The translations under genes and the position numbers were made by a program. A DNA stretch of 64,000 nucleotides from a virus. Taxonomy: Duplodnaviria; Heunggongvirae; Uroviricota; Caudoviricetes. The stretch lies in the IMG/VR virus record IMGVR_UViG_3300029533_000034; one strand, 5' to 3'. The first letter of the stretch is position 1. Every line of letters starts with the position of its first letter. The notes beneath the pieces were generated by a model. The model made no database searches and had not been told where the DNA came from. It saw only the letters and a list, made by a program, of their open reading frames with translations. Of this stretch, positions 8,161 to 48,069 are shown piece by piece.

Positions 8161-9132
8161 TCAAGTTTGTAACTCCCTTGCTTTAACTCTAACCAGTCCA
8201 GGCAGGTTTCTTATCGGTGCAATAAAATCGAAGTTTGTATAAATTTGTTTGATTGCAAGCTTAATATTATCGATGCTGTTAGTGCTCGCAATTTTACTCA
8301 TGTCCTTAAACTGTCGATCAGTTGGATTGATAGTGACAGATTTTGGAGCGAACTCTGAGTTAAGGATATCAAAGTAGTCGCGGATCTGTTTTTCAGCTTT
8401 AGCAAATTGATTTCTCTTTTCAGCATAAGCGTCATAGGTCTCAAGTAAACGAATCTTAAAATATTTAGAGGACTCAGATTGGCTGATCTTAAAGATAGAA
8501 TTTATAATATCATTAGACATAACCTTTATAATGTCTTTAACTTGAGTATATGTAGGAAACATTGTTTTAAGTTTAGACATATTGCAGCCATCGCTTAATT
8601 TCATGTTCTGTTTTCCAGGGACCTTATTCATTAAGCCACGAACAGTAAATCTAAGCTCGTTAATTCCCGGAAGTTTCTTAAGCTTGTCCAATAATATTTT
8701 AGACAGCACAATAAAGCCTTTACCACCAGCGTTGGCAGGTAAGGCTTTTGTGGTATAATAGTTTATAAAAATATCATAGGTACCATCCAAAGTGCCTGGG
8801 CAGAAACAGATATAATCTTTTCTGCTCAGTATTCTGAGATTATTTAGAATGGTTCTTTCTGGAAGATCAAGGTACTTGTGTGCTTGATATAGATCAAGTA
8901 CACAATGTGCTTCAGAATTTACATCAAGGAAGTGCAGGTACATATAGACAAGAAGAGCATTGCGATTTAAAGTGTTGCCATTTCCAAACGCATTATACTC
9001 ATTTATGTAAGTGACCTTGTTGTTTATGACTTCTACGCAGTTAGGTCGTAAGCCAACAGCTTTAACAAGAGCTTCAATGCTAATATTTACGCTGCTGGAA
9101 AGTCTTGGCTTTATAAGATTTATAGTTGACAT
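8161..9132 (-). CDS. Putative replication initiator / wHTH DNA-binding protein
   Basis: AAAGGAGG before the ATG at 9132. HTH-like LDLPERTILNNLRILSRKDYI; C-terminal IKLAIKQI...IRNLPGLVR resembles Rep/DnaD-type tails. Adjacent to the repeat array. Confidence 0.5.
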   Translation of the reverse strand: MSTINLIKPRLSSSVNISIEALVKAVGLRPNCVEVINNKVTYINEYNAFGNGNTLNRNALLVYMYLHFLDVNSEAHCVLDLYQAHKYLDLPERTILNNLRILSRKDYICFCPGTLDGTYDIFINYYTTKALPANAGGKGFIVLSKILLDKLKKLPGINELRFTVRGLMNKVPGKQNMKLSDGCNMSKLKTMFPTYTQVKDIIKVMSNDIINSIFKISQSESSKYFKIRLLETYDAYAEKRNQFAKAEKQIRDYFDILNSEFAPKSVTINPTDRQFKDMSKIASTNSIDNIKLAIKQIYTNFDFIAPIRNLPGLVRVKARELQT

Positions 9133-9200
9133 TGTACTTGCACCTCCTTTCATAATCACGATTTTTGCACAAATATGTAGATAAATCAAATTTATACAAG

Positions 9201-9885
9201 CACTTAAAAAATAGCGACAACTTGGAAATGGCACATTAGAAATAATGACATAGACCTGTTGCGCACTTGGAGGACAGTGACATTTTTGCGCAAACACTTA
9301 AGATTCAGTGACACTTTTTGCAAAGTTGGTGATTACACTTAGAAAATGGTGACAGATTTGCCAAAACACATGAGAAAAATAGACAAACTTGTAGGAAACA
9401 CTTAAGATTCAGTGACAGATATATCATTGCACTTAGATATTGACGACACATTTTTATTTTTTTATGATGCACTTACAAAGTGATGACAGATTTCCGAGAA
9501 CACTTAAAAATAAGCGACAAATTTCATTGGTAACACTTACAAATAATGGCATATTTTATGATAACACTTAAGAAATGATGACAGATTTATCTTTTTTTTG
9601 TAGGAATAGTACTTAGGAACCGGTGACAGATATATCATTGCACTTAGAAATTGACGACACATTTATAATAATGCAAAGAATCTAGTAATATGCTTATATA
9701 AACACTTAAAAATTTGTGCCATTTTTGTGCCAGCACTAAAAAAATGATGACACTTTTTCTAAAAATTAGTTTGCACTTAAGAACTGTGGACATTTTTTTA
9801 ATAGCACTTAGAAATTGACGACACAATAGAAACGGCACTTAAGAATTGGTGACATGTTTATATGTACACTTAAAAACCATAGACA
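9201..9885 (+). repeat. Array of 20 iteron-like direct repeats CACTTA-N9-GACA (probable origin or centromere)
   Basis: Starts at 9201, 9232, 9264, 9295, 9336, 9367, 9399, 9430, 9470, 9501, 9534, 9565, 9610, 9641, 9703, 9734, 9774, 9805, 9836, 9867. Spacing mostly 31-33, sometimes 40-45, once 62. Confidence 0.9.
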
Positions 9886-9944
9886 CTTTTTCATTTGCTT
9901 AAAAATACTGAAAACTATATAATAATTGCATTGGAGGGAAAACG

Positions 9945-11495
9945 ATGCAAAAAATTTCTGTAGCAATTTTAAATGATATTATTAGATATTTAGATAATGA
10001 TCTGATTGAATTTTATACAGACAATTATCAAAAGAATAAATATTTAAAAGAGTCGTTGTTTGATTATGTCTCCTACTATGTACAAACAGACATTCTGGAT
10101 AAGGATCCGGAAGGACTATCCAAGCTGTTGACATTAAAAATGAGAGCAAGAACTAGACGAAAGACGCGTTATTTGCAGAAATGTAAAGATGATGTTGATC
10201 TATGCATATGGGAACATACAGATAATCTTGAAAAGTTTTTTGCACGAAATAAAGTATACTCATATACTGCATTGAATGCAGAGCAGAGAGCAACAATTTA
10301 TGTAAATCAGACACTTGACGATATTATAGAAGAGTCATTGAAGCTTGTAGAAATTTGGTCGAAAGATGCCAAATCTAAAATGATTAAATGTCCCGGAACA
10401 GAATACATTACCGATAAAACAAAATGCAGCTATTTTGAGAACGATCTTTTGATAAATATATTACAAGTAATTAAAGAAAGATATCATTCTGACCTAAGTA
10501 GTCAGACCATGACATATTTAGATTATCTTGGTGATAAATCTATTCTTAGCGCATCAAGTACAAAGTTTCCGTTGAATGAAACTGGTGTGACACAAATTGA
10601 GATTAGAGATCCAATTAATTCTAATATAAAGACAGTGATTACTTATGATGGTACAAGTGCTGCTAAATATTATACATTATTAGATACGCTTGACGTAAAT
10701 ATAATCTCATACATAACGAATAAATCCATTCAGACTATCTCTGATTCAAGATCTATTTTGATTCCGGAGTCGGATTTGGTAAAAGCTGTTTTATTAAAAA
10801 ATGGAACAAACCGTATTCTCTCGCAGAGAGATAGGGAACGCGTTAGGGATCATATTTATAAACTTCAACATACAAGATTAGATGTATATCAGAATGACAC
10901 AATCATTGCTTCCTATGGTTTGCTAGGCGATACTAAATTTTCACAGATCAATGGGATCAATTATATAGAATCATTTTCTAATCAGTATATAACAAAACAA
11001 GTTGAGGATGGTCTAATTACGCGATTACCTACTTATGCTGTAGATCGTCTCGATGATAACACGGCACAATTACTGTATTTACCGTTAATGCAACAGCGCT
11101 ATAAGATCTACAGACTTATTAGGAATAAAGAGTATTCTTCCAGTAACGATTATACAGTAATTTTTAAAAGGATTGATTTTTCAAGATTTTTGAATTTTTC
11201 TAATTGTACAGTGACAAGAGAAAAAGAAATGATAGAGAATGCTTTACAGGATTATGTAAATAAAAATCTTTTTATAAAGGAATTTAAGTATTCAAGAGTA
11301 CAGGATGAATATAAAATAATTTTTTATGAGCTTTCTGAAGAAGAAATTGCTGACATTGAATACACATTTTATAATCAGGATCCTGCAAAGATATCTAATA
11401 TGATTGTTGGAAATGTGCTGTCTCCTAGTATAGTAGACGCTGCGGCAGCAAGCGCTATAGAAACAACGTTTACGGATACTGATCTAATTGAATGA
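9945..11495 (+). CDS. Putative plasmid replication initiator (Rep-like), 516 aa
   Basis: AT-rich ORF with GGAGG RBS directly after the repeat array and a terminator at ~11505-11535. Family assignment inferred mainly from context. Confidence 0.5.
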   Translation: MQKISVAILNDIIRYLDNDLIEFYTDNYQKNKYLKESLFDYVSYYVQTDILDKDPEGLSKLLTLKMRARTRRKTRYLQKCKDDVDLCIWEHTDNLEKFFARNKVYSYTALNAEQRATIYVNQTLDDIIEESLKLVEIWSKDAKSKMIKCPGTEYITDKTKCSYFENDLLINILQVIKERYHSDLSSQTMTYLDYLGDKSILSASSTKFPLNETGVTQIEIRDPINSNIKTVITYDGTSAAKYYTLLDTLDVNIISYITNKSIQTISDSRSILIPESDLVKAVLLKNGTNRILSQRDRERVRDHIYKLQHTRLDVYQNDTIIASYGLLGDTKFSQINGINYIESFSNQYITKQVEDGLITRLPTYAVDRLDDNTAQLLYLPLMQQRYKIYRLIRNKEYSSSNDYTVIFKRIDFSRFLNFSNCTVTREKEMIENALQDYVNKNLFIKEFKYSRVQDEYKIIFYELSEEEIADIEYTFYNQDPAKISNMIVGNVLSPSIVDAAAASAIETTFTDTDLIE

Positions 11496-11600
11496 AAAAA
11501 TGAAACCTTCGGTTGAACTTACCGGAGGTTTTTTTTGTGTAAAAAACTTTATCTCATATTCTTTATGAAACAAATTTCAGAATTGAAGGGAGAAAATGAG

Positions 11601-12602
11601 ATGAGTAAAGCAGACGAAGTGTTCGTTGCCATGTGCAACGATATCTTAACAAATGGAACAGACAATAAAGGAGAGGATGTACGCCCGGTATGGACGGATA
11701 CCAATGAGCCGGCGTATACGCTTGCAAGATTTGGTGTTGTCAACCGCTATGATCTGTCAAAGGAATTTCCAGCAATAACGCTCCGTCGTACTGCCATCAA
11801 GACCTGTACAGAGGAAATGTTGTGGATATGGCAGAGAAAATCCAACAACATCAATGACTTAAACAGCACCGTGTGGGATGAATGGGCGGATGAAAACGGT
11901 TCTATCGGGAAAGCCTATGGATACCAGCAAGCGAAAATGCACGGATATCCGGAAGTAACTGTTACAGGAATCGTAAAAGCATTTCCGGATGTAACAATGC
12001 TTCCATATTTTAACGGAAAGTCCTGTGCGAAGACACTCGCGGTTGTTGGCTGTACGAATGAGAATAGCCAGTTTACAGGTCGTGTAATTGGGGAAAGAAA
12101 TGGAGATATCTGGTACATGACACAGATTGACAAGGCGATTTATGATCTGGTCAACACCCCGTTCAGCCGCCGCATCATTGTTTCAATGTGGAATCCGGAG
12201 GAACAGAAAGATATGAATCTGGCTCCATGTGCATACGAAGTCACCTTTATGGTGACGGAGAAAAACGGGGAAAAATATTTGAATGCGGTCTTAAACCAGC
12301 GTTCCAATGACCTGCTTGCTGCTGGTAATTGGAATGTATGCCAGTATGCAGTTCTTGTGCATATGGTTGCAAGACATGTCGGAATGAAAGCCGGAGAGCT
12401 GGTGCATGTGATTGCGAACGCTCATATTTACGATCGGCATATTCCGATTGTGAAAGAACTGATCAAAAGGGAACAGCATCCGGCACCGGATTTCTGGTTA
12501 AATCCTGAGAAAACAAGCTTTTATAGTTTTACGGAGGATGATGTCCGTCTGGACAACTACCAGACGGGAGAGCAGGTGCGGAATATCCCAATCGCTGTCT
12601 GA
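11601..12602 (+). CDS. thyA: Thymidylate synthase with an internal insertion
   Basis: WDEWADENG, SRRIIVSMWNP, LAPC, QRSND, NAHIYDRH, C-terminal IAV. Confidence 0.95.
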   Translation: MSKADEVFVAMCNDILTNGTDNKGEDVRPVWTDTNEPAYTLARFGVVNRYDLSKEFPAITLRRTAIKTCTEEMLWIWQRKSNNINDLNSTVWDEWADENGSIGKAYGYQQAKMHGYPEVTVTGIVKAFPDVTMLPYFNGKSCAKTLAVVGCTNENSQFTGRVIGERNGDIWYMTQIDKAIYDLVNTPFSRRIIVSMWNPEEQKDMNLAPCAYEVTFMVTEKNGEKYLNAVLNQRSNDLLAAGNWNVCQYAVLVHMVARHVGMKAGELVHVIANAHIYDRHIPIVKELIKREQHPAPDFWLNPEKTSFYSFTEDDVRLDNYQTGEQVRNIPIAV

Positions 12603-12706
12603 TACAATTTCATAGCAATTTTAAGAGGAGTCTTTTAAGGCTTCTCTTTTTTTCATTTCATATTGGTATTGAAACGTAAACATATTGATTTGAAAGGAGA
12701 AAGAAT

Positions 12707-13471
12707 ATGAAAAGTATAGATACAGCAGAGTTGAAGGAGAGCGCGGATATCGTTTCTGTTGTGGAATCGACAGGAAGCCCAGTTCACAATGGAGAAAATA
12801 TCCTTTGTCTGTGCCCTTTCCATAATGACCGTCATCTTGGATCGGCCATGTTTGATAAAAAGACCGGATATTTCCACTGTTTTGCATGCGGAGCTGGAGG
12901 AAAGGGGAATACTGTTGATATCATCCGATATGTTCAGCAGGCGATGAACCTTGATTTTCGGGAATCCTGTGAATTTGTTGCAGAGTCATCATTTTCAGAT
13001 ATAAGCCAGTTTGAGACCGAATCGGAAGCACCGGATAAAAAGTTTCAGCGTATGAACCATAAGCGTTTGAAAGAACTGAGACTTGCCGGGGAAGAAAGGT
13101 GTGAGCCGGAATTTGATCCGAAAAACACGCAGGTTCCGGATGGCGATATCGTCAATTTTGTCACAACAAAAGAAGAGGTAATGGAATATGAGAAAAAGGG
13201 ATATTCTGCACAAAAACAGTGGCAGGAGATTGACGGTACAGTTGTTCTTGCTGGATGGCTTATTTACCAGAGGGTAAAAATGTCTACGGCGAAACTTGCC
13301 ATGGAAGATCCGGAAGCCTTTGCAGCTCTGTGCGCGTGGAAAAAACAGGAATTGCTTTATGAGATCAAGGAACAGAAAAAACAAGTAGAAGATACCGTTT
13401 TTGACCGTGATGAATATAACGATCTTATGAAGATCCTGAAAGCCCGTGAACAGCAGGTAGCAAAATTATAA
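12707..13471 (+). CDS. CHC2 zinc-finger (primase ZBD) protein without Toprim domain
   Basis: CPFHND...FHCFACG...DIIRYVQQAMNLDFRES. Confidence 0.8.
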   Translation: MKSIDTAELKESADIVSVVESTGSPVHNGENILCLCPFHNDRHLGSAMFDKKTGYFHCFACGAGGKGNTVDIIRYVQQAMNLDFRESCEFVAESSFSDISQFETESEAPDKKFQRMNHKRLKELRLAGEERCEPEFDPKNTQVPDGDIVNFVTTKEEVMEYEKKGYSAQKQWQEIDGTVVLAGWLIYQRVKMSTAKLAMEDPEAFAALCAWKKQELLYEIKEQKKQVEDTVFDRDEYNDLMKILKAREQQVAKL

Positions 13472-13518
13472 AAATTTAAGGTTTCTCTAGTTGGAGGAAC
13501 CTTTTTCTTGGGAAATTT

Positions 13519-13555
13519 GTTGCATTTTTATTTAAGGGATGTATATGGATTGAAA
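13519..13555 (+). repeat. Degenerate solitary CRISPR-like repeat
   Basis: GTTGCATTTTTATTTAAGGGATGTATATGGATTGAAA shares the GTTGCA start and TGGATTGAAA end with the mini-array repeats. Confidence 0.4.
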
Positions 13556-13630
13556 AGGTTTTTTAAAACATTTCAAAATCTTTTGACGATTTTCCAGATG
13601 GCGCAATATGTATCATGTAAAGATCATAAA

Positions 13631-13939
13631 CTGGGCTGCCAGGGTTACCGGCTGGCAAAAATCCTTTCGATATTTGTTTACGCTTCCGGGGAAACCCGGA
13701 AGGGATAGTGAGGACGCAGTGTAAGCTGTTTCCGGGTCCGATTCCCGGATATCCCTTTTCACTACCGCATATGGTTTTACTTTTTTGTATTTTCATTCAG
13801 CCGTCTGCGGTCTGTGGGATTTCCCACAGAACTAAAATAACGATAACCGCCAGAAAAGGATCGGGAGACTTTATCTTCCGTGCCGGACAGCAGCGTGCGT
13901 TGGCGTGGAAACTATCGGCGTACTTTGTAGACTCCTTTC
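13631..13939 (+). ncRNA. Structured ncRNA, copy 1 (hairpin / anti-leader / hairpin / tRNA-like module / 3' domain)
   Basis: Directly downstream of a class B motif. Closely similar inverted copy at 41662-41934 and a related copy at 18944-19255. Confidence 0.75.
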
Positions 13940-18943: not shown

Positions 18944-19255
18944 CTATCATCATAAGATGATAGCCGTTAAGATTTCTTCTTTCAATCGTGAATGTTTACA
19001 ACCTTGGAACGCGAAAGTGTTCAGGGAACAGTGCTGGCACACGTACCGGACAGGAGACTGCCTGGTATTTCCGGTTCGATTCCGGAATGTTCCCTTTGCG
19101 CGGCATCTGCCGCGCATGAATTTCTAATTTTTTTCATAATCAATTATCTCTTTTAAATAACGATTCAATCGCCAGGAAAGGATCGGGAGATTTATCTTCC
19201 GTGCCGAACTGTGCCCGTGCATTGGCGTCAAAGAAATCGGTGTACGGCTTTCTCC
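18944..19255 (+). ncRNA. Structured ncRNA, copy 3 (includes tRNA-like module 19023-19095)
   Basis: Same order of parts as copy 1. Shares AAATAACGAT..CGCCAG..AAAGGATCGGGAGA..TATCTTCCGTGCCG..TTGGCGT..ATCGG.GTAC. Confidence 0.65.
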
Positions 19256-27166: not shown

Positions 27167-27548
27167 AAACTGTGTTTCCTAATTGGAGGAAGAAATTAAA
27201 GGCTCGATTCCTTTTGCAGTTTAACTCTGTTCGAACGATACAAGAACAGAGATCTTATTTATTGTCCTCAATTTTTGGGCGGTTATCCGTCCGGCATCCA
27301 TCCGGTGGGGGGAGCACGGAATGTAAATTCTGTGTAGGGGTGGTTCGACTCCATCTGGATGTCATTCTGTAGGTCCCATATAAGCCTACAGAACTTTTCC
27401 TAATTACTTACATCCAACGCTGCTGTGGCAGGACATGTTTGTGTGTTGCGGGAATCAAAACCCGCCGTTGGTTTACTCACCAGGGAAATACATTTTCCGG
27501 AAACCTAAACCTTGCAACTATTTCCGGGTTCGACTCCCGGCTGGTGAG
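27167..27548 (+). ncRNA. Tandem of three tRNA-like modules (27167-27222, 27293-27364, 27476-27548) with intervening hairpins, in the clpX leader
   Basis: Each has an 8-bp closing stem stacked on a 5-bp T-arm with a (T/C)TCGA(C/T)T loop. Directly downstream of a class B motif. Confidence 0.65.
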
Positions 27549-31143: not shown

Positions 31144-31307
31144 CGCAATTTTAAAGACTAACAGGCTTGCAGGAATGTAGGCCTGCTTTTTTTGAAAATT
31201 GACAAAAATTAAAAGAATTTAAAAAAATTCCCCAAAATCTTTTGACGGATTTTCAAATGGCGCAATATGTGTATTGAAGGGCAAAGTGTAATCTTACGTT
31301 TTGCTCT

Positions 31308-31467
31308 TCCACGAGACACTTTTCTTGTGGACCTTCTTAAAGTATATTGTTTTCGCGCCCTTGTTTTTAAGACACGGCATTATGCAGGGCGCGGGAGAGG
31401 ATCTTGCAGATATGACATTTGTTTGGTGAAAATGGTCTGCCTCCCGGTTCGAGTCCGGGGAGATCCT
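31308..31467 (+). ncRNA. Modular ncRNA with tRNA-like module (31398-31467) in the recG leader
   Basis: Hairpin, pyrimidine-rich segment, hairpin, then AGGATCT/AGATCCT stem with T-arm CCGG-TTCGAGT-CCGG. Confidence 0.6.
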
Positions 31468-31544
31468 TTTGGCAGGATTACATTCTTATAGGAATTGTTT
31501 AATAGTTTGGCGGACAGGATGGCTAATTCATGTTCATATTTACA

Positions 31545-31577
31545 GCTGTATCCCACGAGTGGTGCATGGATTGAAAT
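31545..31577 (+). repeat. Solitary type I-C-like CRISPR repeat
   Basis: GCTGTATCCCACGAGTGGTGCATGGATTGAAAT, 31 nt upstream of the recG start. Confidence 0.65.
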
Positions 31578-31608: not shown

Positions 31609-34017
31609 ATGGAATTACAGGAATTAGGGCTTTCTGATATTCAGATGAGAGCTTTGGAAAAAAAGAAGGTTGTATCCGTGGAGGCGCTGCTCCGGCGTCC
31701 GCCTCTGCATTACTATGATTTTTCAAAAACCTATCCATTATCGCTAAAAAATCCAGAAACGGCAGAGATGCTTGAAAAGAATCGTCCATTTGCTGTAAGC
31801 GGAGAATGCATCCGGTTTGGGCTTGGAGAAGCCAACCATGCCAAATGCATTAAGCTGGTAATCGAAGATGAGAATACGAAAAGCGGATTTGCGGGCAGTA
31901 AGGGGCAGGTTCTATATGTCAATATCCTTGGATATGACCAGTTCCGGCAGACATTTTTAAATGACTGCAAGGACAGCCCGCACCGGATGGAAATCCATAT
32001 TCCGGATGGGGTGGATGCTTATTACCAGGGAGAAAAAAGACAGGTAAATGATTCCTGCAGGAAGCGTATTGAGTTTCTGAATTCTCTCGACGAGACTGCC
32101 GTCCGTGATTTTATTGCAGTGAAAACAAATGGTGTGGATGGATGGTCGAGAAGCAAAATTTCGGATATTGCGGATGAAGATACGGTTCGCTTTCTGGAAC
32201 AGTATTTTGACATGAGGGAAGATATCCTTCGTGTGTTGAAATGGTATGCAAGAGGAATGCGCCTTGACTTTGCCATCAAAAAGACGCTGATTGATGATAC
32301 CGATACACTCCGGAAACTGATTTTACATAAGCGTTTTCTTGTCGGTGGATTTATCCGGTATGACGAGCCGCGCAAGTTTTTCAGCGTATTAAACCCGGTT
32401 GCTTTTTCCTCCAATTTTGAGCGGTTCGAAAAGTATGATGTCCAGTACGGGCAGGTGAAAGGGGTCACACCGGACCGGTACGAGGAATTGATCAAGCGTG
32501 CTTCTGAGGGGATCAGTTCCATGGATTTCCTGCCGGCATCTGTCTGCAGGCAGTATAATGTCCCAGCATTTAAGGAATCCGTCATGATGATGCATTATCC
32601 GAACACCTACGGACAGGTGAAAAAGGCAAAGGAGCGTACGCTTGTCGAAGATTTGCTCTACTTTGCATTAAAGCTTGAGGTGTCTAATAAGAGAAACGAT
32701 GATATTGAAGGGGTCCGGATGGATGATTTCTTTCTTGTAGAGAAATACGTTTCCTCTCTTCCTTATGACCTTACCGGAGACCAGAAGAGGAGCGTGGAAA
32801 CCATCTGCAGGAAAATGGCTTCCGGCAGCCCGGTAAATGCTCTTGTACAGGGTGATGTCGGTACCGGTAAAACAGCGGTAGCCTTCTGCCTGCTCCTTGC
32901 TGCGGCAGGAAGCGGATACCAGGCTGCGCTTGCGGCACCATATACCACGCTTGCGTTTCAGCACTGTCGGGATATGGAAAAGATTGCAGAAATGGTCGGG
33001 GTGAAAGTCGCATTCCTTACCTCGGATATTAAAGGGAAAAAGAAGAAGGAAACACTGGAAATGATCCGGTCTGGGGAGGCGCAGGTCATCATCGGGACCC
33101 ACAGCATTTTCTCGTCAGATGTGGAATACAAAAACCTTGCCCTTATCATCACGGATGAGGAGCACAAGTTCGGTGTTGTGCACCGTGACAGCTTCCGTGA
33201 AAAAGCGCTGGAGGGCTTCCATCAGATCACCATGTCGGCGACACCTATTCCAAAGTCGATCGCGGCAACCCTGTATGACGATACGATGGACATTATTTCC
33301 ATAAAGGACAAGCCGGCAAACCGTATTCCGGTGCAGACCGCTGTCTGCCAGAAAGACATTACGGCTTTGAAGTTTATGGAACAGCAGATCGGTCAGGGAC
33401 GCCAGTGTTATGTTGTCTGCCCGGCTATTGAGAAGAATGACAAGGCTGAAAAGATGGCTTCCATTACAGAGAAGGAGGAAGTATACCGGAGATATCTGGA
33501 GAGCAAGGGAATGAGCCTTGCGGTAGTGACCGGTAAGTTAAAGACTGCGGAGAAACAGCAGATCATGGAAGATTTTACCTCTGGAAAAATTGATGTGCTT
33601 ATGGCAACCACGGTGATCGAGGTCGGCATTAATGTTCCGAACGCAACAGTAATGGTGATCACTGGCGCGGAGCGGTTTGGATTCTCCACCCTGCACCAGC
33701 TCCGTGGGCGTGTCGGGCGAGGGGAGTACAAGTCGTATTGTATTTTACAGACGATAGAACCGAATGAAAAGCTGCAGTTTATGTGCGATACCACGGACGG
33801 TTTTAAGATTGCGGAAAAGGATCTGGAACTCCGTGGACCGGGTTCCATGTTTGGTGAGCGGCAGAGTGGTGACAATTACTACGTATCCTTGATGCTCGCC
33901 AACCAGGAATTATTTAAGAAGTTAAAGGAAACTGCAAAGAAGCTTTGCAAGGATGCTACAGGCAGGGATATCATCCGCAGGTATGAGGAGATTTTCCGGG
34001 CAGAAGAGGAAAGATAG
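31609..34017 (+). CDS. recG: ATP-dependent DNA helicase RecG
   Basis: [50 protein letters not shown]. Confidence 0.95.
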
Positions 34018-34028
34018 GAGGATGTGGG

Positions 34029-34553
34029 ATGGAAGAGTTACAGGATGTTTTCGGAACGCGGTTAAAGCGGTTTATGCAGGAGAAGAACATGACGCAGCGG
34101 AAACTTGCGAAAGCGACAGGACTTACGGATGTCACCATTTCCAGATATACCAACGGAACCAGGCTTCCCGGGGCGGATGAACTGTTAAAACTTTCCAACG
34201 CGTTGTCCGTCAGTGCAGATGACTTAATCGGCATTGGAAAAGCGGGAGAGACAAGGGGTATCCACCCGGGTGACATCGTGCAGTATTTCAAGCGGCAGAG
34301 ACTCATCAATCCCGGGCAGATGTACCTGTACCGGATCATTGCATTCGGGGAACATACAGAAACGAAAGAAAAGGAAGTCATTTACCAGGCTTTGTATGAG
34401 GATACTGATCTTGGTGTACATTTCGGGATATATGTCCGGCCGTTTGACATGTTTTTCTCAGAGGTTGACCGCGTCAAGTATCCGGAAAATGAGTATCCGG
34501 AAATTACGCAGAAGTACCGGTTTGAGAAATACAACAGGCAAAGAGTTTGTTGA
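34029..34553 (+). CDS. XRE HTH fused to a DUF1653-like domain
   Basis: N-terminal HTH, then YFK...[15 protein letters not shown]...[15 protein letters not shown]...QKYRF. Confidence 0.85.
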
Positions 34554-34580
34554 TTTCTCTTTTATAAGAGAAACACAGTT

Positions 34581-34681
34581 GATACATCCAGTGATGGATG
34601 TATGGGTTGAAATATGGCAGGATGAGACGTCGATATAAAGTCTCTACAGTTACATCCCTTATGGGATGTATGGATTGAAAT
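34581..34681 (+). CRISPR. Orphan CRISPR mini-array (two 33-nt repeats, one 35-nt spacer), type I-C-like
   Basis: GATACATCCAGTGATGGATGTATGGGTTGAAAT (34581-34613) and GTTACATCCCTTATGGGATGTATGGATTGAAAT (34649-34681). Confidence 0.7.
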
Positions 34682-35046
34682 GCAGCGTATGCATCAGAGA
34701 GACTTCGATATTTGTTTGTGCTCCGGGGAAGTCCGGAAGAAATGTTGGATTATAAAAGGGCTCCTCTGGCAGAGCGGTGGTACTGGCCGGCGCGTCAACT
34801 GTTGTGACCTGCAGCCATACTTACTGAGGCATACCTATGCTGGTATACCAGGGTATTTTAAAAATAATATTGAAAGGATAATTTTGATATGGAAGAAAAA
34901 TATACTATTGAGCAGATAATTGATGCAATTGTGCAGTGCGACAGCGAGATTGTATATGCACTACAGCATAAAGATAGAAAAATTCTTACGGAAGTTCTCA
35001 CAGATACCCTCAAAGAATACCTTCCAGAGAAAGGAGGCATAAAAGA

Positions 35047-36828
35047 ATGAGAAATTCATTAAATAGGAAATTGACCTTTATTTTTTCAGGAATTGTACTT
35101 GTTGCATGTCTGCTTCTACTTGGTACATGTTCATGGATATTCAGGAGTGTCGAAAGTACAGTTAAGAATATTAGATATGATGATATTCTCAGTGGATATA
35201 AGACGGAAGTTAAAGCGGAAGTCGAGACGGCGTTAAGTATCGTCCAGCATTATTATGGTCTTTCGCAGTCTGGAAAAATTACGGAAGATCAGGCGAAAAG
35301 TGATGCTGAAGAAGCACTTCGTGATTTTAGATATGGTGATGATGGAAGCGGATACGTATGGATTGACGATACTGATTATACACTTGTTATGCATCCGATT
35401 CTGCCAGATCAGGAAGGAGCTAACCGTAAGGGTCTGGAAGACAAGAATGGAGTTATGATTATCCAGGAAATCATGAAAGTTGCCGATAAAGGCGGATATA
35501 ACGAGTTTATGTTTACAAAATCCGATGGAAAAACAGTAGCTCCAAAGATTGCGTATAGCAAGGCATTCCCACAATGGAACTGGGTAATTACAACTGGCTG
35601 TTATACAGATGATATCAAAGGAAATATTGCCGGAAGTCACAATAATATTCGAATTAACAAATTGTTTAAAGGCTCTACGATATTTATGATAGTTGAAAGC
35701 ATCGTGATCGTATTTGCTATGGTAATCATTTCAACTCTGGTAATTAAGAAAGTGACGAAAGAAATAAATCGTATTAAAGACCGGTTGGGTATGGTTGCAG
35801 ATGGAGATCTTTCCGTAAGTCTTGATCAGATAAAAAGAACAGATGAACTTGGACAGATGCTTAGCCATACAAATCTTGCAATTGGAAAATTCAAAGATGT
35901 AATCAAGAAAAGTCTTTCCACATCAAAGGATGTTGAAAAAACAGGGAAGGAAGTAAAAACAATCGCTTCTTCTGTTGCAGATGCATCAGATCAAATATCT
36001 ACTGCCATTGAGGGAATTGCTGGAGAAGCAACTAACCAGGCATCTGCAATTAATACAGTAACATCTGCAGTTAAAGAAATGCAAGAAAATACAGATAATA
36101 TTAGTTCATCTATTCAGCAGATCGGAAGATCATCAGATTCTTTACTGAAAAATTCTGGAGAAATGAAGAAGCATATCTCTGTTATGCAGTGTAGCAGCGG
36201 AGATATGACAGAGCAAATTAATGATATTGCAAAAAAGATTGTAGAAACGAGTGATACTGTTGAGCAGATGTCTGGAATTGTGAACAGCATTGAAAATATC
36301 GCAAACCAGACAAACCTTCTTGCGTTAAATGCATCCATTGAGGCTGCAAGAGCGGGAGAGGCCGGAAAAGGTTTTGCGGTAGTGGCTGATAGTATCAAAG
36401 GACTTTCAGAAGATACCTCGTCGGAATTGGCAAATATAAAAGCAATTATTAATGATCTGGTAGATAAATTTGGGCTGTGTACAGAAAATATCGGGTATGT
36501 GGTGGAAAGCAATGCTTCCAATATGGAAGATACTAAAGAAGTAATGGATGCGTTTGATGTACTGGATAAGGGGATCACCGAAACGTCAGATATTGTTCTT
36601 AGAATTAATTCTATCATAAAAAGATCTGTGGAACAAATCACATCTATTAGTAATCAGATTGTAGATATTCAGCGTGGAGCGGAAAGTTCTGCGGCAGCAA
36701 GCGAAGAAGTAACCGCTTCTGTAGAAGAGTTAACTGCTTTAATGAATACATTGGATTCAAATTCAGAGGAGCTTACGCAAAAAGCTGATAATCTTGTAAA
36801 TGAACTGGAATATTTCAAAGTTGATTAG
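35047..36828 (+). CDS. Methyl-accepting chemotaxis protein (Cache, HAMP, MCP signal)
   Basis: Two TM helices, Cache motif [43 protein letters not shown]. Confidence 0.95.
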
Positions 36829-36879
36829 AGAAGTATTTTATTGTATAGGATCAACCAAACTATTTTAAGGAGAGATTTT

Positions 36880-37677
36880 ATGTTAGTAAGATTTATGCCG
36901 GAATTGGGAAAATACGCTATGAATTCATTAACGGTAATGCTTTTATTTTTGCTTGTGTTTGTGTCGACGGTTACGAAAGATATTCTTGAGGCAAAGAAGT
37001 TGCTAAAAAGATATGAGGCATTTTGGATATACCCTTTCCTGAGTGTTGTATTATTAATTGGATTTGCATTAAATACGGATATAATACTTGATTTATTCAT
37101 TATGTTGGAGTTGGCAGCTTGTGTTAACTTATGGATATTGGAATACAGACGGTATAAAAAAGCAAGAAATGGTATGGAATCTTGTACTCTTTATATACCT
37201 ATATTGCCGGATAATACAGTTATCGTTGAAAATCCTATGATGGATGGTGAGATGAAGGTATTGGGATTCATGTTTTACAATACAAGAACCATGGAATACG
37301 AAACTTACGGGACTGTATCGGATGAGACACTTGCGAATGTCAGAGATAATGATCCAGAGTTATATAAAAAGATCATGGATAATGAACCAGTTAATGCACA
37401 AGATTGTCCATTGTCATGCGTATGGGAAAGTAATATTCCAAATGAACATGATGAGTTGCTGCAATACATAATTGTGGAATGTATTTCTTTGTATTCTCAA
37501 CAGCTTGTAGAGTTTTGCAAATACTTAAGTGAAGATTCAATAATTATTTTCCGGCTTTGTGGCAAGAGAAATGATGAAGTAAGTGTATCATGTGATAAGT
37601 ATTTTTCAGATGAGACAATGACAAAATTTATTGACAAAATTGATGAAGAATATAGGAAAATGAGGGAGAATTCGTGA
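36880..37677 (+). CDS. Hypothetical membrane protein
   Basis: AAGGAG RBS and three N-terminal hydrophobic segments. Confidence 0.65.
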   Translation: MLVRFMPELGKYAMNSLTVMLLFLLVFVSTVTKDILEAKKLLKRYEAFWIYPFLSVVLLIGFALNTDIILDLFIMLELAACVNLWILEYRRYKKARNGMESCTLYIPILPDNTVIVENPMMDGEMKVLGFMFYNTRTMEYETYGTVSDETLANVRDNDPELYKKIMDNEPVNAQDCPLSCVWESNIPNEHDELLQYIIVECISLYSQQLVEFCKYLSEDSIIIFRLCGKRNDEVSVSCDKYFSDETMTKFIDKIDEEYRKMRENS

Positions 37678-37682
37678 AAAAA

Positions 37683-38009
37683 ATTGTGCTGCTAAATTTA
37701 AAAAATGCTACAGCATGGAAAAGGATTTTATTGAATGGACAAAAGAAAATAAAATCAAAGTGTTAAACAGTGGGATTAAAACCGCATGACTATATATCAG
37801 GGAGACTGACTATGCTTCCTTGCCGCTAGACAGAAATTTACCGAAAAACAACTAGATTTCTTACATAATAATGTGGCCGTAGGCTGCTTGGTAATAAAGT
37901 CCTTGCTTAAAATAGACTATACCTGTATTCCAAAGCCTGCAAATGGTGTACGATTACAGGCCAAACTTGAATGCAAGAACCCCACAGGCTTGTCTGTGGG
38001 AGTAGTCAG
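37683..38009 (+). mobile_element. IS605 remnant: tnpB 3' tip, omegaRNA and right end
   Basis: Homologous to 52935-53278; ends CCCACAGGCTTGTCTGTGGGAGTAGTCAG. Confidence 0.85.
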
Positions 38010-38034
38010 TTATAAGAGAAAAGAGGGAACGAAA

Positions 38035-38199
38035 ATGGATTTATTATTGGTGTTGCTGTGTATAGCATTATTTTGCGTGCTTTGTGTTGTAGTATGGAAG
38101 TATAATCATATGAATTACACTGCAAAAGTAGTTCTTATTGTATGCAGCTTGATAGTATTTGTCAGTTTTCTGAAAAAATATGCATTTATGCGTTTGTGA
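38035..38199 (+). CDS. Small membrane protein
   Basis: GAGGG RBS; 54 aa with two hydrophobic segments. Confidence 0.5.
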   Translation: MDLLLVLLCIALFCVLCVVVWKYNHMNYTAKVVLIVCSLIVFVSFLKKYAFMRL

Positions 38200-38377
38200 A
38201 GGAGCTGAGTTGACCTCTGGATTATGGATATGCCAAACTGTGACAAAGATCCTGTTAGACATGGGAGGACGATAAACGAAATTTTGCAAGTTTATCGCAA
38301 AGAAAGGAAGATAAGAGAAATATACATACTTACTGTATCCTACAGAGTGTAGGGATTGAAATAAATGGAGGAACCAT

Positions 38378-38767
38378 ATGAGAAAGAAATTACTGCTTGC
38401 AGGTCTCTGCACCGCAGCTGTGCTGTTATTTACGGCATGTGCGGGTGCAGAGCTGGACGGGGAAGAAGTGGATACACAAAATACACAAAAATTCGAGGAC
38501 GTTGTGAGGTTGATGGAGGAGACAGCTGCTCAGGAAGCGGAGACAGAAGATGAAATCCATTACACGGTGTACGTATATAACGAGGATGGGACGATCAAGA
38601 AATCGTACAATGACGTGTTTGATGTTGCGGTTCTGCACAACGGGGCTGTTCAGATCAGCATGGATAAGGAAGGAAAGGAAACCCGTCTGCTGGTAAATGA
38701 GCAGGTGGAGATTGTTCAAAAGAGGGTTACAAACATTGGCCAAAAAACAAAGAAAACAGAAGAATAG
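38378..38767 (+). CDS. Putative lipoprotein
   Basis: MRKKLLLAGLCTAAVLLFTAC signal peptide with lipobox; GGAGG RBS. Confidence 0.7.
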   Translation: MRKKLLLAGLCTAAVLLFTACAGAELDGEEVDTQNTQKFEDVVRLMEETAAQEAETEDEIHYTVYVYNEDGTIKKSYNDVFDVAVLHNGAVQISMDKEGKETRLLVNEQVEIVQKRVTNIGQKTKKTEE

Positions 38768-38787
38768 GGAAGAGGTGAAGGAAGATC

Positions 38788-39183
38788 ATGGATATGTATT
38801 CGCGGGTATGCGTTGTATGCAAACAGAAAAATTCATCGCGGAACTTAAATCAGCTGCGTGTGATTGAGCAGTTTGTTAAGCAGAAGATAAGTGCAAAAGG
38901 GAAGAAGTCAAAAGACAGCGATCTTACAGAAAGAATACAGTTCATCCAGGCGATGACGATGTATTCGCATGAAAATTGCCAATATGGTTTGTACTGTTCA
39001 ATTTTAAGCGATCGGAGGGTCAAGTTCAATCAAATGGCAGAGGATATTGCGGAGGATATTCTTTGGTATATTCAGTCTGCTGATAAAGCGGAGATACAGG
39101 AACTTCTTCGGTATTTTCAGGGGTACTTTCCTGCTGGGTATAAGTGGATCGAGCGGTACTGGCATTCCATAGAAAAGAAGTAA
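38788..39183 (+). CDS. Hypothetical protein
   Basis: 131-aa co-oriented ORF with RBS. Confidence 0.6.
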   Translation: MDMYSRVCVVCKQKNSSRNLNQLRVIEQFVKQKISAKGKKSKDSDLTERIQFIQAMTMYSHENCQYGLYCSILSDRRVKFNQMAEDIAEDILWYIQSADKAEIQELLRYFQGYFPAGYKWIERYWHSIEKK

Positions 39184-39356
39184 TAAGAGGTAGCAAGCAT
39201 GAAAAGATATATCATTGCATTTGGAGTTTCATTTTTATTATTGGTTGTATGTGGCGTATTTCTGTTTGGATCTCGATATGGTCTATATGCATCGTTTTTC
39301 CCGTATTTTGTGTGTTTGGTATAGCGTTTATGCTCAAAAGAAGAAAGGATTTGCTT

Positions 39357-39806
39357 ATGACGGAACATCAAAAAGAGATTTTGTATAAAAAACTATATGG
39401 CGAAAAAATCAAAGAATGGAAACGGGATACTGTATTTGTAGTGATGTGTTCTGTATGTTCATTAATTTTGTTTACATATCTTTTAGTTTTTATTGCAAAA
39501 GTGCTAGGAAAATATAAATTATTTCAATTAATGGTAATTATTATACTTATTTTGGGTATATTTGGTCTTGTAATGGATGCATTGTGCTTTGTTCTTTGTA
39601 TTTCTACAATCATGTATTATCAAAAATTGTCAAAAGATTTTACAGAATATATTAATGCAGGGCTTTGCAGTGTTAACGAAAAACAGGATTGTAACGGACA
39701 ACAGATTTTTTGTGTAGATATGGGGAAATATTTGCAAAAGGAGATTTCGGTGAAAAATATGGAAGAGTATATCGGAAACTTTAAAATGGAAAAGATGGGA
39801 AAATAG
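39357..39806 (+). CDS. Hypothetical membrane protein
   Basis: AAAGGA before the ATG at 39357; two TM segments. Confidence 0.55.
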   Translation: MTEHQKEILYKKLYGEKIKEWKRDTVFVVMCSVCSLILFTYLLVFIAKVLGKYKLFQLMVIIILILGIFGLVMDALCFVLCISTIMYYQKLSKDFTEYINAGLCSVNEKQDCNGQQIFCVDMGKYLQKEISVKNMEEYIGNFKMEKMGK

Positions 39807-40051
39807 CAATGTCAGAATTAACGTCGGAAGAACGGCATAAAAAACAGCTGGCAAAGATTCAAAGTCAATCCTACTGTTGAAAAACTTGGAAAACAAAAAG
39901 AGCTGCCGTCGCAGCTCTTTTTTGCATTGGATAAATACCTTTAATTACATACAGTCACGTTTTGCAATTTGTTTAGGTACTAAAATTAATCTTCCACAAC
40001 TTTTCATTTCGAAAGATTATACACAAAGTATATCATTTACCATGGATTCTG

Positions 40052-40342
40052 TCAAGAGTTAAGAAGATAGTCGTATTCTTCTTTTGTATCCCTTACCTGT
40101 ATTGTCCAGACATGGCGGGAGTAGTTGTAGCCGAGGTAGAACTTAATTTCCCGGTTGTACTGCCTGACTGAGCACAGAAAATTAACATCCATCTGTTTAT
40201 CACTTCTTTTGATCACATTAACTTCCGAATATGTCTGAATTTCTCCGGATGCCGGATCTTTGAATCGGACGCGCAGCGGAGTCACGCTTCCGTCTGTATC
40301 CGTGATTGAGATTACCTGTGCGGGGATGTTAATTACTGGCAT
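40052..40342 (-). CDS. Hypothetical protein
   Basis: AGGAGG RBS; 96 aa, beta-rich. Confidence 0.65.
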   Translation of the reverse strand: MPVINIPAQVISITDTDGSVTPLRVRFKDPASGEIQTYSEVNVIKRSDKQMDVNFLCSVRQYNREIKFYLGYNYSRHVWTIQVRDTKEEYDYLLNS

Positions 40343-40446
40343 ACATACGTACCTCCTGTTTGGTGTATTACAGAAAGCATAGCAGATTCCGGAGAAAAAT
40401 GCAAAAAGAAAACGCCCCGGTGAGGGGCGTTTGCTGCTTGCCGATC

Positions 40447-40833
40447 TTACAGGCTTGCAATAATTTTCTCAAGTTCTTTCTTTACTGCAGCATTCTGTTC
40501 TGTCTTATCTGCATCTTTCAGACCTTTTTTCTGGATGATGATTTCCGGAATGATGTCTGGAGTATTGCAGACGATGGAAGCATAATACTGTGCTTTTGTC
40601 ATGGTAGGAGCAAGTTTTCTTGCATATGTCTTTACGGTTTTCTCCAGTCCGGCAACTTCCAGGAATCCGTCTGTGGAAAGAGCCTGTACGGTCTTAAACA
40701 GTGTTACATTGTTCCATCCGGCGGGCGCCAGTTTCTCTGCCATTTTATTGGCAGTCATTGGTTCGTTTGCTTCCCAAAGAAATTCCATAAGTTCTGTCTG
40801 TCTTGGGGTTAATGTTCCTTCTTTTACTCTCAT
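40447..40833 (-). CDS. BlaI/MecI/CopY-family wHTH repressor
   Basis: LTPRQTELMEFLWEANEPMT...TLFKTVQALSTDGFL. Confidence 0.8.
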   Translation of the reverse strand: MRVKEGTLTPRQTELMEFLWEANEPMTANKMAEKLAPAGWNNVTLFKTVQALSTDGFLEVAGLEKTVKTYARKLAPTMTKAQYYASIVCNTPDIIPEIIIQKKGLKDADKTEQNAAVKKELEKIIASL

Positions 40834-41661: not shown

Positions 41662-41934
41662 GAAAGGAGATTCCTGTACGCCGATAGTTCTCACGCCAAC
41701 GCACGCTGCTGTTATTCTGGCGGTTATCGTTATTTTGGTTCAGTGGAGAATCCCACAGGCCGCATCCGGTCAGTGAAAATGTTAAACGAAACTGCATGCG
41801 GCAGTGAAAAGGGATAACCGGGAGTCGGACCCGGAACAGCTTACGCTGCGTCCACATTATCCCTTCCGGGTTTCCCCGGAAGCGTAAACAAATATCGAAA
41901 GGATTTCTGCCAGCCGGTAACCCTGGCAGCTCAG
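41662..41934 (-). ncRNA. Structured ncRNA, copy 2
   Basis: Inverted homolog of 13631-13939 lacking the ~30-nt AAGGATCGGGAGA..GTGCCGG segment. Directly downstream of the class B motif at 41957-41983(-). Confidence 0.75.
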
Positions 41935-42018
41935 CTATTTGACTCTTACACTATAGATATTGCGCCATCTGCCATTTCGTCAAAGTATTTTTGAAAACTT
42001 TTTGAATTTCTTTGCGTC

Positions 42019-42154
42019 GCAACATATATTGTCTGGCTATTGTCATATATCCACTTGGTTCAATCCATGCACCCTCGCGGGGTGCAACAAAATATCAAAT
42101 TGGTTCACATTTCCGCTTATAAATTTCAATCCATACACCCTGAAGGGGCACAAC
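42019..42154 (-). CRISPR. Orphan CRISPR mini-array, type I-C-like (two 32-nt repeats, 34-nt spacer, possible second 33-nt spacer and truncated third repeat)
   Basis: Minus strand: GTTGTGCCCCTTCAGGGTGTATGGATTGAAAT (42154-42123), GTTGCACCCCGCGAGGGTGCATGGATTGAACC (42088-42057), then GTTGC at 42023. Class B motif ~35 nt upstream. Confidence 0.8.
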
Positions 42155-46843: not shown

Positions 46844-47194
46844 ATGAAGGTATCAGAAGTAAGAATTATACCGGTGAAATCCGGTAATGGATCAACAAAG
46901 GCATATGCTTCAATTAACTTAGACGGGGTATTCGCAGTCAATGATATCCGTGTCGTTGAGGGGAAGAAGGGATTATTTATTTCCCTCCCAAACCGTAAAG
47001 GTAAAGATAAGGATGGCAATGAGAAATATTATGATATTGCCTTCCCGACAACTGCCGAACTCCGTAAGGAGATTAGTGATGCTGTTATTGCTAAGTACAA
47101 TGAGACATTGCAGTCTCAGCCACAGTCGAATGCTGACGGAGCTTCGCAGCCTGCAGATGATGATGATCCGTTCTCAGGTGTAGCAGGATGGTAA
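46844..47194 (+). CDS. spoVG: SpoVG-family nucleic acid-binding protein with acidic tail
   Basis: KAYASINLDGVFAVNDIRVVEGKKGLFISLP...YYDIAFP. Confidence 0.9.
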   Translation: MKVSEVRIIPVKSGNGSTKAYASINLDGVFAVNDIRVVEGKKGLFISLPNRKGKDKDGNEKYYDIAFPTTAELRKEISDAVIAKYNETLQSQPQSNADGASQPADDDDPFSGVAGW

Positions 47195-47283
47195 GAAAGA
47201 AAAGGAGGGCTTCGGCTCTTCTTTTTTTTTTTCATATTAAAGATGTAAAACAAATATTTCAAATTCGAAAGGAGAAAACAATT

Positions 47284-48069
47284 ATGGTAAACAGAAATGA
47301 AAGATATTGGAAGAACAAAGGGGAAAGAGCAGCTGCCGCAAAGAATCATCTGGCTTATGTTTCAGAGAAATATAAAGAAGAGATCAGCGAGCAGGTGGTA
47401 AATACTGTCATGTACGATGCCCGAGTGATGCAGAGATCAGATAAGAGTGGGAAACCACGGCAATTTTTTTTGTCAGCAGATACAGTAACAGCTATTTTTA
47501 CCGCTAAGCGTAGCAAAGATACCGGTAAAGTGGCAGCGTTGAATTTTGCGTCATTCAAAAATCCCGGCGGAATGTTTCTTGCTGGAAGCAAGGCACAGGA
47601 AGAATGCCTTTGTATGGATTCAACACTGTATCCGGTACTTAACAGCTTCCGTGGAACATATTACGAACCAAATAAAAAGCTTTTGAATCGGTCATTGTAT
47701 ACAGATCGCGCATTGTATACGCCAGATGTCGTTTTTGAAAACGAGGAGTGTACGGTCAAAGCAGACATCATAACCTGTGCTGCGCCAAATAAGTATGCCG
47801 CGCAGAAATACCAGAAGGTCAGCGACGAGGAAAATGAGAAAGTCTTGATAAATCGGCTTCTTTTCATCCGGGATATCGTAGCCGATCAGGGTGTCGATAC
47901 ATTAATTCTCGGTGCTTTTGGCTGTGGTGTGTTTGGACAGGATCCACAGCAGGTTGCAGAACTGATGGATGAAATTTTTGGTGTTGCCTCTATTGAGAAT
48001 ATTGTGTATGCTGTACCTGGGTATGATAAAACGGCCATGGTATTTGAGAAACATTTTTCCGAGAAGTAG
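47284..48069 (+). CDS. Microbial-type PARG (TIGR02452/DUF2263 macrodomain)
   Basis: LNFASFKNPGGMFLAGSKAQEECLC, LYTPDV, ITCAAPN, LILGAFGCGVF. Confidence 0.9.
   Translation: MVNRNERYWKNKGERAAAAKNHLAYVSEKYKEEISEQVVNTVMYDARVMQRSDKSGKPRQFFLSADTVTAIFTAKRSKDTGKVAALNFASFKNPGGMFLAGSKAQEECLCMDSTLYPVLNSFRGTYYEPNKKLLNRSLYTDRALYTPDVVFENEECTVKADIITCAAPNKYAAQKYQKVSDEENEKVLINRLLFIRDIVADQGVDTLILGAFGCGVFGQDPQQVAELMDEIFGVASIENIVYAVPGYDKTAMVFEKHFSEK

Follow-up and report, generated by a model that had tools for sequence, protein, structure and literature searches.

The array locus and its repeats

The window, by which we mean the whole 64,000-nucleotide stretch of viral DNA analysed here, carries a compact CRISPR array beyond the end of a gene for an HTH/DUF1653 protein. 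Two full repeats, 68 nt apart, enclose a 35-nt spacer and are followed by a second, shorter spacer, a piece resembling part of a multi-copy small RNA (sRNA) gene of the same element (the trailer) and a tail (Table 1). The hairpin repeats, the 11-nt 3' handle of the TGGATTGAAAT type and the structurally conserved stem are those of a type I-C array. Both repeats are 33 nt long and end in the handle TGG[G/A]TTGAAAT, the stem being TACATCCA/TGGATGTA around the loop GTGA in repeat 1 and TACATCCC/GGGATGTA around TTAT in repeat 2.

Table 1. Features of the array and of the comparison loci, in window coordinates
Feature	Position	Strand	Basis
AT-rich hairpin preceding repeat 1, after the HTH/DUF1653 gene (34029-34553)	34554..34573	+	palindrome, fold
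Repeat 1, type I-C-like: 8-bp stem and 11-nt handle	34581..34613	+	sequence, stem covariation
Spacer 1, 35 nt, likely against an invader	34614..34648	+	metagenome contig loose ends
Repeat 2, type I-C-like; also a recombination point	34649..34681	+	sequence, stem covariation, L133 junction
Spacer 2, shortened to 24 nt; matches a 68-codon early phage gene, TTT PAM	34682..34705	+	IMG/VR matches
Trailer, homologous to the 3' part of the multi-copy anti-leader RNA	34704..34739	+	alignment; invariant in 6/6 loci
Tail: begins AAATGTTGGATTATAAA, ends in a palindrome and a T/A run	34740..34864	+	no homologue found
First mini-array, same repeat family: two repeats, 34-nt spacer	42057..42154	-	sequence
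Full anti-leader RNA gene, copy 1 (comparison locus)	13583..13860	+	promoter, antisense segment, GAAA hairpin, tRNA-like element
Second full copy of the anti-leader RNA gene, downstream of the array at 42057..42154 (for comparison)	41715..41983	-	

A sequence-only reading of this DNA had reported that the two repeat stems differ by a compensatory pair. They do, the A-T / C-G swap being the innermost pair; it is hardly informative alone, because that pair adjoins a completely changed loop. Across 12 aligned repeats, one of them from an unrelated genome, 98.8% of 84 stem cells are paired and 3 of the 7 stem pairs have changed on both sides. In cells paired, cells with changes to both sides and covariation score, none of 500 shuffles reached the observed value, and 3 of 500 did for the count of pairs changed on both sides; further pair types were not above shuffles (359 of 500 as high). 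Sliding the register of the same alignment lowered pairing to 23-62%. In an end-anchored count over 19 repeats, pairing held in 107 of 114 stem cells, where shuffles gave 100.1 (p 0.0002); because the repeats are related paralogues, these shuffle tests may be inflated. The closing pair is U-A in 18 of the 19 repeats counted, the one exception being a misfit of the end anchoring.

Type I-C-like repeats also occur singly, at 31545-31577, 38332-38362 and 13519-13556 of the window and at about 8463-8490 of one relative locus (L143). Three solitary repeats lie just upstream of start codons, those of recG and cas5d included, and it is possible that they are Cas5d processing or autoregulation sites in mRNAs.

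A metagenome scan returned 20 matches in 18 loci, all of them close relatives. Comparison with these homologous loci, which the earlier reading had proposed as a check, found the array intact in five and the trailer unchanged in all six that carry it. The sixth, L133, joins a different upstream sequence at repeat 2, one that also appears as a loose end in metagenome contigs. The only variant across six loci in the AT-rich hairpin before repeat 1, a possible leader or attenuator element, is at 34564, within the loop. An open reading frame of 79 codons from the ATG at 34680 was set aside, being disrupted by the commonest allele, as was a true third repeat at 34714-34743, which has a repeat-like start and end around a core that is the sRNA hairpin.

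For the tail, no homologue was found in the window, PLSDB, INPHARED or Rfam, and the fetched loci held only orthologous copies; its palindrome and T/A run were not called as a terminator. The AAATGTTGGATTATAAA at its start is possibly a collapsed repeat. In Rfam the window gave tRNAs only and the array locus nothing.

The element and its cas genes

Window ORFs include nrdD, thyA, dnaE, recA, a ligase, helicases and IS200 genes, and there are tRNA genes as well. A Pfam scan of 51 of the 161 window ORFs found no Cas family, and a PHROGs scan of 30 proteins found no virion gene. The window belongs to a large gut mobile element, which may be a phage or a megaplasmid. Proteins neighbouring the array recur on up to 721 contigs, the longest of 350-450 kb, and one of them is named from a Lachnospiraceae MAG; at least half of the words of 33000-36500 are present in 19 of 24 sequencing runs, animal gut and wastewater included. 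Between divergent genes for 378-aa and 516-aa proteins, at 9200-9900, lie iteron-like CACTTA..GAC repeats, and this region is a possible replication origin; the 516-aa protein has only weak matches, on Paenibacillus megaplasmids. The element also encodes a PARP-domain protein (869-2185, minus strand) and a microbial PARG-domain protein (47188-48069, plus strand).

The cas genes came from relatives. In six relative loci a four-repeat array is followed by cas5d, and in L143 cas5d is overlapped by cas8c, which runs off the end of the locus. The Cas5c profile scores 177 bits against a cut-off of 85, and the Cas8c Pfam family scores 267 bits over the N-terminal 285 aa, the locus ending inside cas8c. 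The element's Cas5c-family protein is 63-66% identical to Lachnospiraceae homologues and, like the chromosomal ones, keeps Y47, W48 and K136; at the equivalent of H117 of Bacillus halodurans it has F, again as the chromosomal homologues do (numbering read from alignments). One relative, L144, joins window positions 9993-13518 (96.8%) to the cas5d-cas8c operon, and a member of the Cas5d cluster and a member of the cluster of the window's 516-aa protein have longest contigs of equal length, 354,582. Judged by the linkage through L144, cas5d and cas8c are on the same element as the array. An element-type promoter stands directly before cas5d, and the ORFs scanned upstream of this gene included no cas3.

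Two further spacers deserve mention. The cas-adjacent array holds one of 23 nt (L132 2045-2067, minus strand, and the same in L143), which has a repeat-handle-like sequence at its end. A spacer of a related mini-array (L138 4820-4831) resembles the element's cas8c over 12 nt of seed and is flanked there by ATT, a likeness within chance.

Databases of assembled genomes added little. Searching IMG/VR with the HTH/DUF1653 protein gave 77 loci with domain-level likeness only; the repeat motif had no match in IMG/VR and four unrelated loci in GTDB, the leader motif described below had three viral loci in IMG/VR with no repeats found in them, and GTDB held nothing for a neighbouring 278-aa gene. Neither the sRNA nor the array had a match in PLSDB. 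We found no published paper on the element, the spacer-sRNA fusion or the anti-leader RNA in literature searches that covered few subscription papers; supplementary tables on Racr, Cracr and huge phages might include the element.

Origins of the two spacers

Spacer 2 leads to a phage family, a relation absent from the sequence-only reading. A seed pattern taken from the sequence after repeat 2 matched 18 IMG/VR loci, and 11 of these belong to one phage family, with 24 of 24 positions identical in eight and 23 of 24 in three. All 11 matches begin at the first base after repeat 2 and each is preceded by TTT; the other seven cover fewer positions, have neither PAM nor extension, and were treated as chance. 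If the collection holds about 1e11 positions, some 0.0004 chance 24-mer matches would be expected. On this evidence we take the first 24 nt after repeat 2 to be phage-derived. In the sections of the two sources cited here, TTT is the second PAM of the Legionella I-C system (PMC5602111) and the Neisseria I-C PAM reads TTY (bioRxiv 2023.08.05.552134); TTT and TTC are thereby both known as PAMs of type I-C. A type I-C spacer length (about 33-37 nt), foreign origin and a 5'-TTY PAM are found at this array: TTT in 11 of 11 matches for spacer 2, of which 24 nt are left, and a TTC flank in one contig for spacer 1, which is 35 nt long.

The target phages are temperate and tailed (integrase, repressor, terminase, portal, capsid and tail sheath), 40-47 kb long and unrelated to the element, sharing nothing with the window besides the spacer at E 1e-3. 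Protospacer 2 is in the coding strand of a gene of 68 codons, part of the rightward (early) operon that lies beyond the repressor. One target record is a provirus; because its flank encodes a Roseburia faecis protein, this species is the likely host of both element and phage, judging from that flank, and no R. faecis-level match was found among 401 genomes of one family. Nor was the target phage gene found in those 401 genomes, and INPHARED gave for spacer 2 just five 17-nt cyanophage matches at E 4, treated as chance. Other spacers of the element had no match in the five phage genomes read, and that of the first mini-array had three chance matches. One of the target phages (G406) has a weaker likeness to spacer 2 at L184 5595-5619, 22 of 25 positions, with no TTY PAM.

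Five of six loci, and all three contigs that span the site, have T in place of C at 34683, which is seed position 2. This allele matches none of the 11 phage family records, and because the seed change departs from every one of them it suggests that spacer 2 is decaying.

Spacer 1 was traced through metagenome contigs. In one of four sequencing runs, a piece of a single contig aligns to the locus from 34614 to 34648 and no further, with a loose end on each side (both ends were assigned to that contig by inference), and its flanks are non-repeat, the upstream one ending in TTC. The piece passed the 80% threshold, with no differences listed inside it. Spacer 1 likely has, on this reading of the contig ends, a full-length, PAM-flanked match in foreign DNA. 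It is invariant in the five loci that carry it and pairs with 20 leaders at a mean duplex energy of -7.2 kcal/mol, against -6.8 kcal/mol in shuffles. No target for it was found in INPHARED or IMG/VR, and the 401 genomes gave one chance match.

The trailer and the anti-leader RNA

The trailer is homologous to part of an RNA gene of which the window holds two full copies (Table 1) and the relatives L132, L137 and L143 further ones. In order, the full gene has an element-type promoter, a segment complementary to the Shine-Dalgarno (SD) region and 5' end of the CATATT..GTAAAC..GAAAGGAG leaders, a GAAA hairpin and a tRNA-like element. The leader family has 18-20 copies in the window, and the full RNA pairs with 20 of them at a mean duplex energy of -18.1 kcal/mol, against -8.8 kcal/mol in 200 shuffles (p 0.005). 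This RNA has no Rfam family, its tRNA-like element showing a weak Y RNA likeness (E 0.16); its motif gave 50 loci at chance level in IMG/VR, and its gene 14 short chance matches in the 401 genomes. More unusual than the trailer fragment, it is probably the window's most unusual feature. The promoter type TTGACG..ATGGCGCAATAT has 13 copies window-wide, and together with the GAAAGGAG leader type it suggests two expression classes. Mimics of a tRNA T-arm and acceptor occur at about 13700-13760, 19071-19099, 27518-27540 and 31442-31472, where ARAGORN and Rfam call no tRNAs.

The likeness of the trailer to 13666-13702, noted in the earlier reading, is real. It extends over 32 of 37 columns (86.5%, E 1e-5 within the window) with a second identical match at 41899-41863 on the minus strand, and it stands clear of shuffled controls: its local alignment scored 48, while 60 shuffles averaged 26.2 and never exceeded 35. 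The TT at 34704-34705 is common to spacer 2 and the trailer, which leaves 34 nt (34706-34739) ending in a 6-bp hairpin at about 34722-34737. The motif GAGAC(G/T)TCGATAT, which that reading had found both in spacer 1 and after repeat 2, is also there, at 34624-34636 and 34699-34711; shuffling gives p 0.0008 or 0.004 depending on the scoring, for a motif picked after the fact. The second copy straddles the junction between phage and sRNA sequence, and the motif is either a coincidence or a template-switch scar. That spacer 1 is a diverged duplicate of the chimera is unlikely, given its end-to-end foreign match.

What the trailer keeps of the RNA is not predicted to behave as the RNA does. Because the phage match ends where the sRNA-like piece starts, the anti-SD bases are lost, and the TTGACG-type promoter, the 5' hairpin and the tRNA-like element are missing as well. 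The full RNA pairs with both the SD region and the leader 5' end; the trailer does not. Its mean duplex energy with 20 leaders is -9.4 kcal/mol, against -9.2 kcal/mol in shuffles (p 0.39), and pairing with leader 5' ends has fallen from -8.2 to -5.1 kcal/mol, a fall equalled by 35% of random three-base variants. The hairpin is as stable in a fraction of 0.335 of random two-base variants. The five positions at which the trailer differs from the closest sRNA copy all show A>G or C>T changes (simulated P 0.003). Across six loci the 34 nt have no variable site and the 525 nt of the upstream gene have 18, which is not significant at the upstream-gene rate, though it leaves room for selection. Most likely, the trailer is a relic and not a regulatory RNA.

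How it came to lie there has two nearly balanced answers. The most likely, by little more than an even chance, is that it was once a third, older spacer, acquired from a diverged sibling element's sRNA gene; one deletion would then have removed about 10 nt of spacer 2 and the intervening repeat, and the last repeat would have decayed. The 34 nt from 34706 fit the spacer range (33-38 nt in six of seven measured, the remaining one being 23 nt), TTT precedes the equivalent of 34706 in every sRNA copy, and the wobble-type differences fit this route because such changes could arise in the sibling's working RNA. No sibling sRNA gene with the trailer alleles was found, the 20 matches being six array copies, which have those alleles, and 14 ordinary sRNA copies. 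Almost as probable is plain recombination with an sRNA copy, which requires two junctions but accounts for the TT overlap; because of that overlap, the PAM then needs just one extra T. The trailer stops at the tRNA-like element's border, which is a natural boundary in the RNA and counts against an old spacer, and sRNA copies and repeats are points of rearrangement in L133, L144 and L146, with L133 and L146 lacking window positions 35350-40569.

Proposed mechanism and alternatives

We think it fairly probable that this is one of several scattered type I-C mini-arrays of a giant gut element, that the element's own Cas5d likely cleaves the array's repeats to make guides that act on invading DNA, and that the sRNA-like piece is a relic. 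A consensus scan found no element-type promoter directly upstream of the array; the nearest one precedes recG, at 31242. The end of the HTH gene overlaps with a terminator-like stem, and the array, if expressed, is probably transcribed by read-through from the recG-HTH operon. B. halodurans Cas5d is described as cutting at the stem base, after G21 (PMC3973291, in the part cited here), and by analogy the cuts would fall after 34602 and 34670. Guide 1 would be a normal 68-nt crRNA. Guide 2 would have the 11-nt handle and 24 matching bases and, with no third repeat, no 3' end made by Cas5d. Both would load into the element's Cascade. In the Neisseria I-C work, as far as the cited sections go, a single repeat-spacer unit represses without Cas3 (PMC10865793) and Cas3 binds the full R-loop only (bioRxiv 2023.08.05.552134), and for these reasons the most that guide 2 could do is bind and prevent transcription of the phage early operon; it should not license Cas3. 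It is probably in decay. Against cutting by this Cas5d we count the F at the H117 equivalent and a closing pair that is U-A instead of C-G.

The sequence-only reading had offered two ideas about function: that the repeats may be processing sites for the regulatory RNA, or that the crRNA may have a regulatory instead of a defensive role. Of the first, the processing sites stand, as Cas5d-type hairpins with covarying stems and a relative's cas5d-cas8c to go with them; the anti-leader RNA as their product falls with the lost leader pairing. The second is not supported, given the PAM-flanked phage target of spacer 2 and what is very likely a full-length, PAM-flanked target of spacer 1, and the check then suggested, for PAM-flanked seed matches in the element's own promoters, found none.

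The best-surviving alternative, which we consider unlikely, keeps the guide and gives the trailer a use: a maintained, chimeric, repression-only guide in which the sRNA hairpin replaces the third repeat and Cas3-less Cascade blocks the early operon of a prophage through a 24-nt R-loop, leaving the host chromosome uncut. The 6-bp hairpin is kept by way of a G-U pair, a retention matched, however, by the random two-base variants described above at a fraction of 0.335. The sRNA-like piece is invariant in 6/6 loci, the target belongs to a prophage's rightward early operon, and the cas-adjacent array has another short spacer, of 23 nt; the commonest allele nonetheless moves seed position 2 away from all 11 phage matches, and the stem begins about 40 nt after the repeat, against about 36. 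Published work, in the parts cited, points both ways: in Neisseria I-C CRISPRi a repeat-spacer unit represses as well as repeat-spacer-repeat, but within ORFs the non-template strand is preferred and this guide would pair with the template strand (PMC10865793). Truncated R-loops bind without cleavage in type I-F1 (PMC7296934), and in type I-C Cas3 is bound by the full R-loop only (bioRxiv 2023.08.05.552134). If this alternative were true, a hairpin borrowed from the element's own or a sibling's master regulatory RNA would silence a resident prophage, and the borrowed piece would record CRISPR warfare against a sibling's multi-copy gene for a translational regulator.

We give little credence to a Cas5d cut at repeat 2 that releases a regulatory RNA mimicking or competing with the anti-leader RNA. 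The trailer's homology to that RNA is real and its substitutions are all wobble-compatible (P 0.003), and because solitary repeats sit just upstream of start codons (31545-31577, 38332-38362 and before cas5d) repeats may process element mRNAs. The 5' part of the released RNA, however, would be the phage-matching spacer, phage sequence having replaced the anti-SD bases; the sRNA promoter, 5' hairpin and tRNA-like element are missing; whole-leader pairing equals that of shuffles (p 0.39); and the drop in pairing to leader 5' ends, to -5.1 kcal/mol, is what 35% of random variants show. Equally improbable is that the repeats act mainly as Racr decoys or Cracr-type silencers against a host type I-C system: such type I-C forms exist on mobile elements (portions of PMC10651486 and bioRxiv 2024.10.29.618823) and the element has many degenerate and some solitary repeats, but the locus has two repeats, foreign spacers and PAMs, the element has its own cas5d-cas8c, and neither the window nor 18 related loci showed a seed match of at least 11 nt to a cas promoter.

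Relation to known systems

The array processed by an element-borne Cas5d, the reading that we prefer, resembles several described arrangements, compared here through the parts of each paper that are cited. Like the partial type I systems of huge phages (Al-Shayeb et al. 2020, PMC7162821), it combines a very large element, compact arrays and a Cas5d-type enzyme; in that account most such systems have no acquisition genes and many no interference genes, their spacers match other phages, and repression without cleavage is proposed. Unlike them as described there, the arrays here have two to four mutually divergent repeats and lie tens of kilobases from the cas genes.

The mini-arrays of SPV1 and SPV2 (PMC11656645) likewise hold one or two spacers, stand far from cas genes and are aimed at mobile elements, and our array too has one or two spacers and no cas genes nearby. 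It differs from what is described for those viruses in that its element has its own Cascade genes and repeats that differ from each other, and in its targets: that of spacer 2 is an unrelated temperate phage and not a related virus, and just the trailer could be sibling-directed.

Degenerate repeats, short arrays and partial-complementarity guides are also features of crlRNA, CreR/CreA and viral Cracr arrays, as given in part of bioRxiv 10.1101/2024.10.29.618823; here, in contrast, 24 nt match inside a phage gene, in place of a short promoter seed, and neither in the window nor in the 18 related loci do spacers 1 and 2 have a Cracr-type PAM-proximal match of at least 11 nt to a cas or toxin promoter. 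RacrIC1 (Camara-Wilpert et al. 2023, PMC10651486) is a type I-C repeat mimic on a mobile element, to which the solitary copies in the window are similar; a Racr is a single repeat with no second within 100 nt, and the array, unlike RacrIC1 as described in that source, has two repeats and target-matching spacers. With canonical type I-C (Dvulg/Csd) repeats and Cas5d, in the portion of PMC3973291 used here, it shares a stem-loop followed by an 11-nt 3' handle, and it departs from B. halodurans, whose cut follows G21, in the U-A closing pair of 18 of 19 repeats.

The array is a known kind, a compact or viral mini-array; it differs in that its element has its own Cascade genes, in its divergent repeats and in an odd, probably relic trailer. 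The idea that CRISPR processing is the source of the element's regulatory RNA at this array is removed. The work connects a common gut element of 350-450 kb with Roseburia faecis as its likely host, and the phage family and PAMs identified here (TTT and TTC) could be used to test a stripped-down type I-C system. A natural shortened guide without a terminal repeat would also be useful for asking what Cascade needs to repress in the absence of Cas3.
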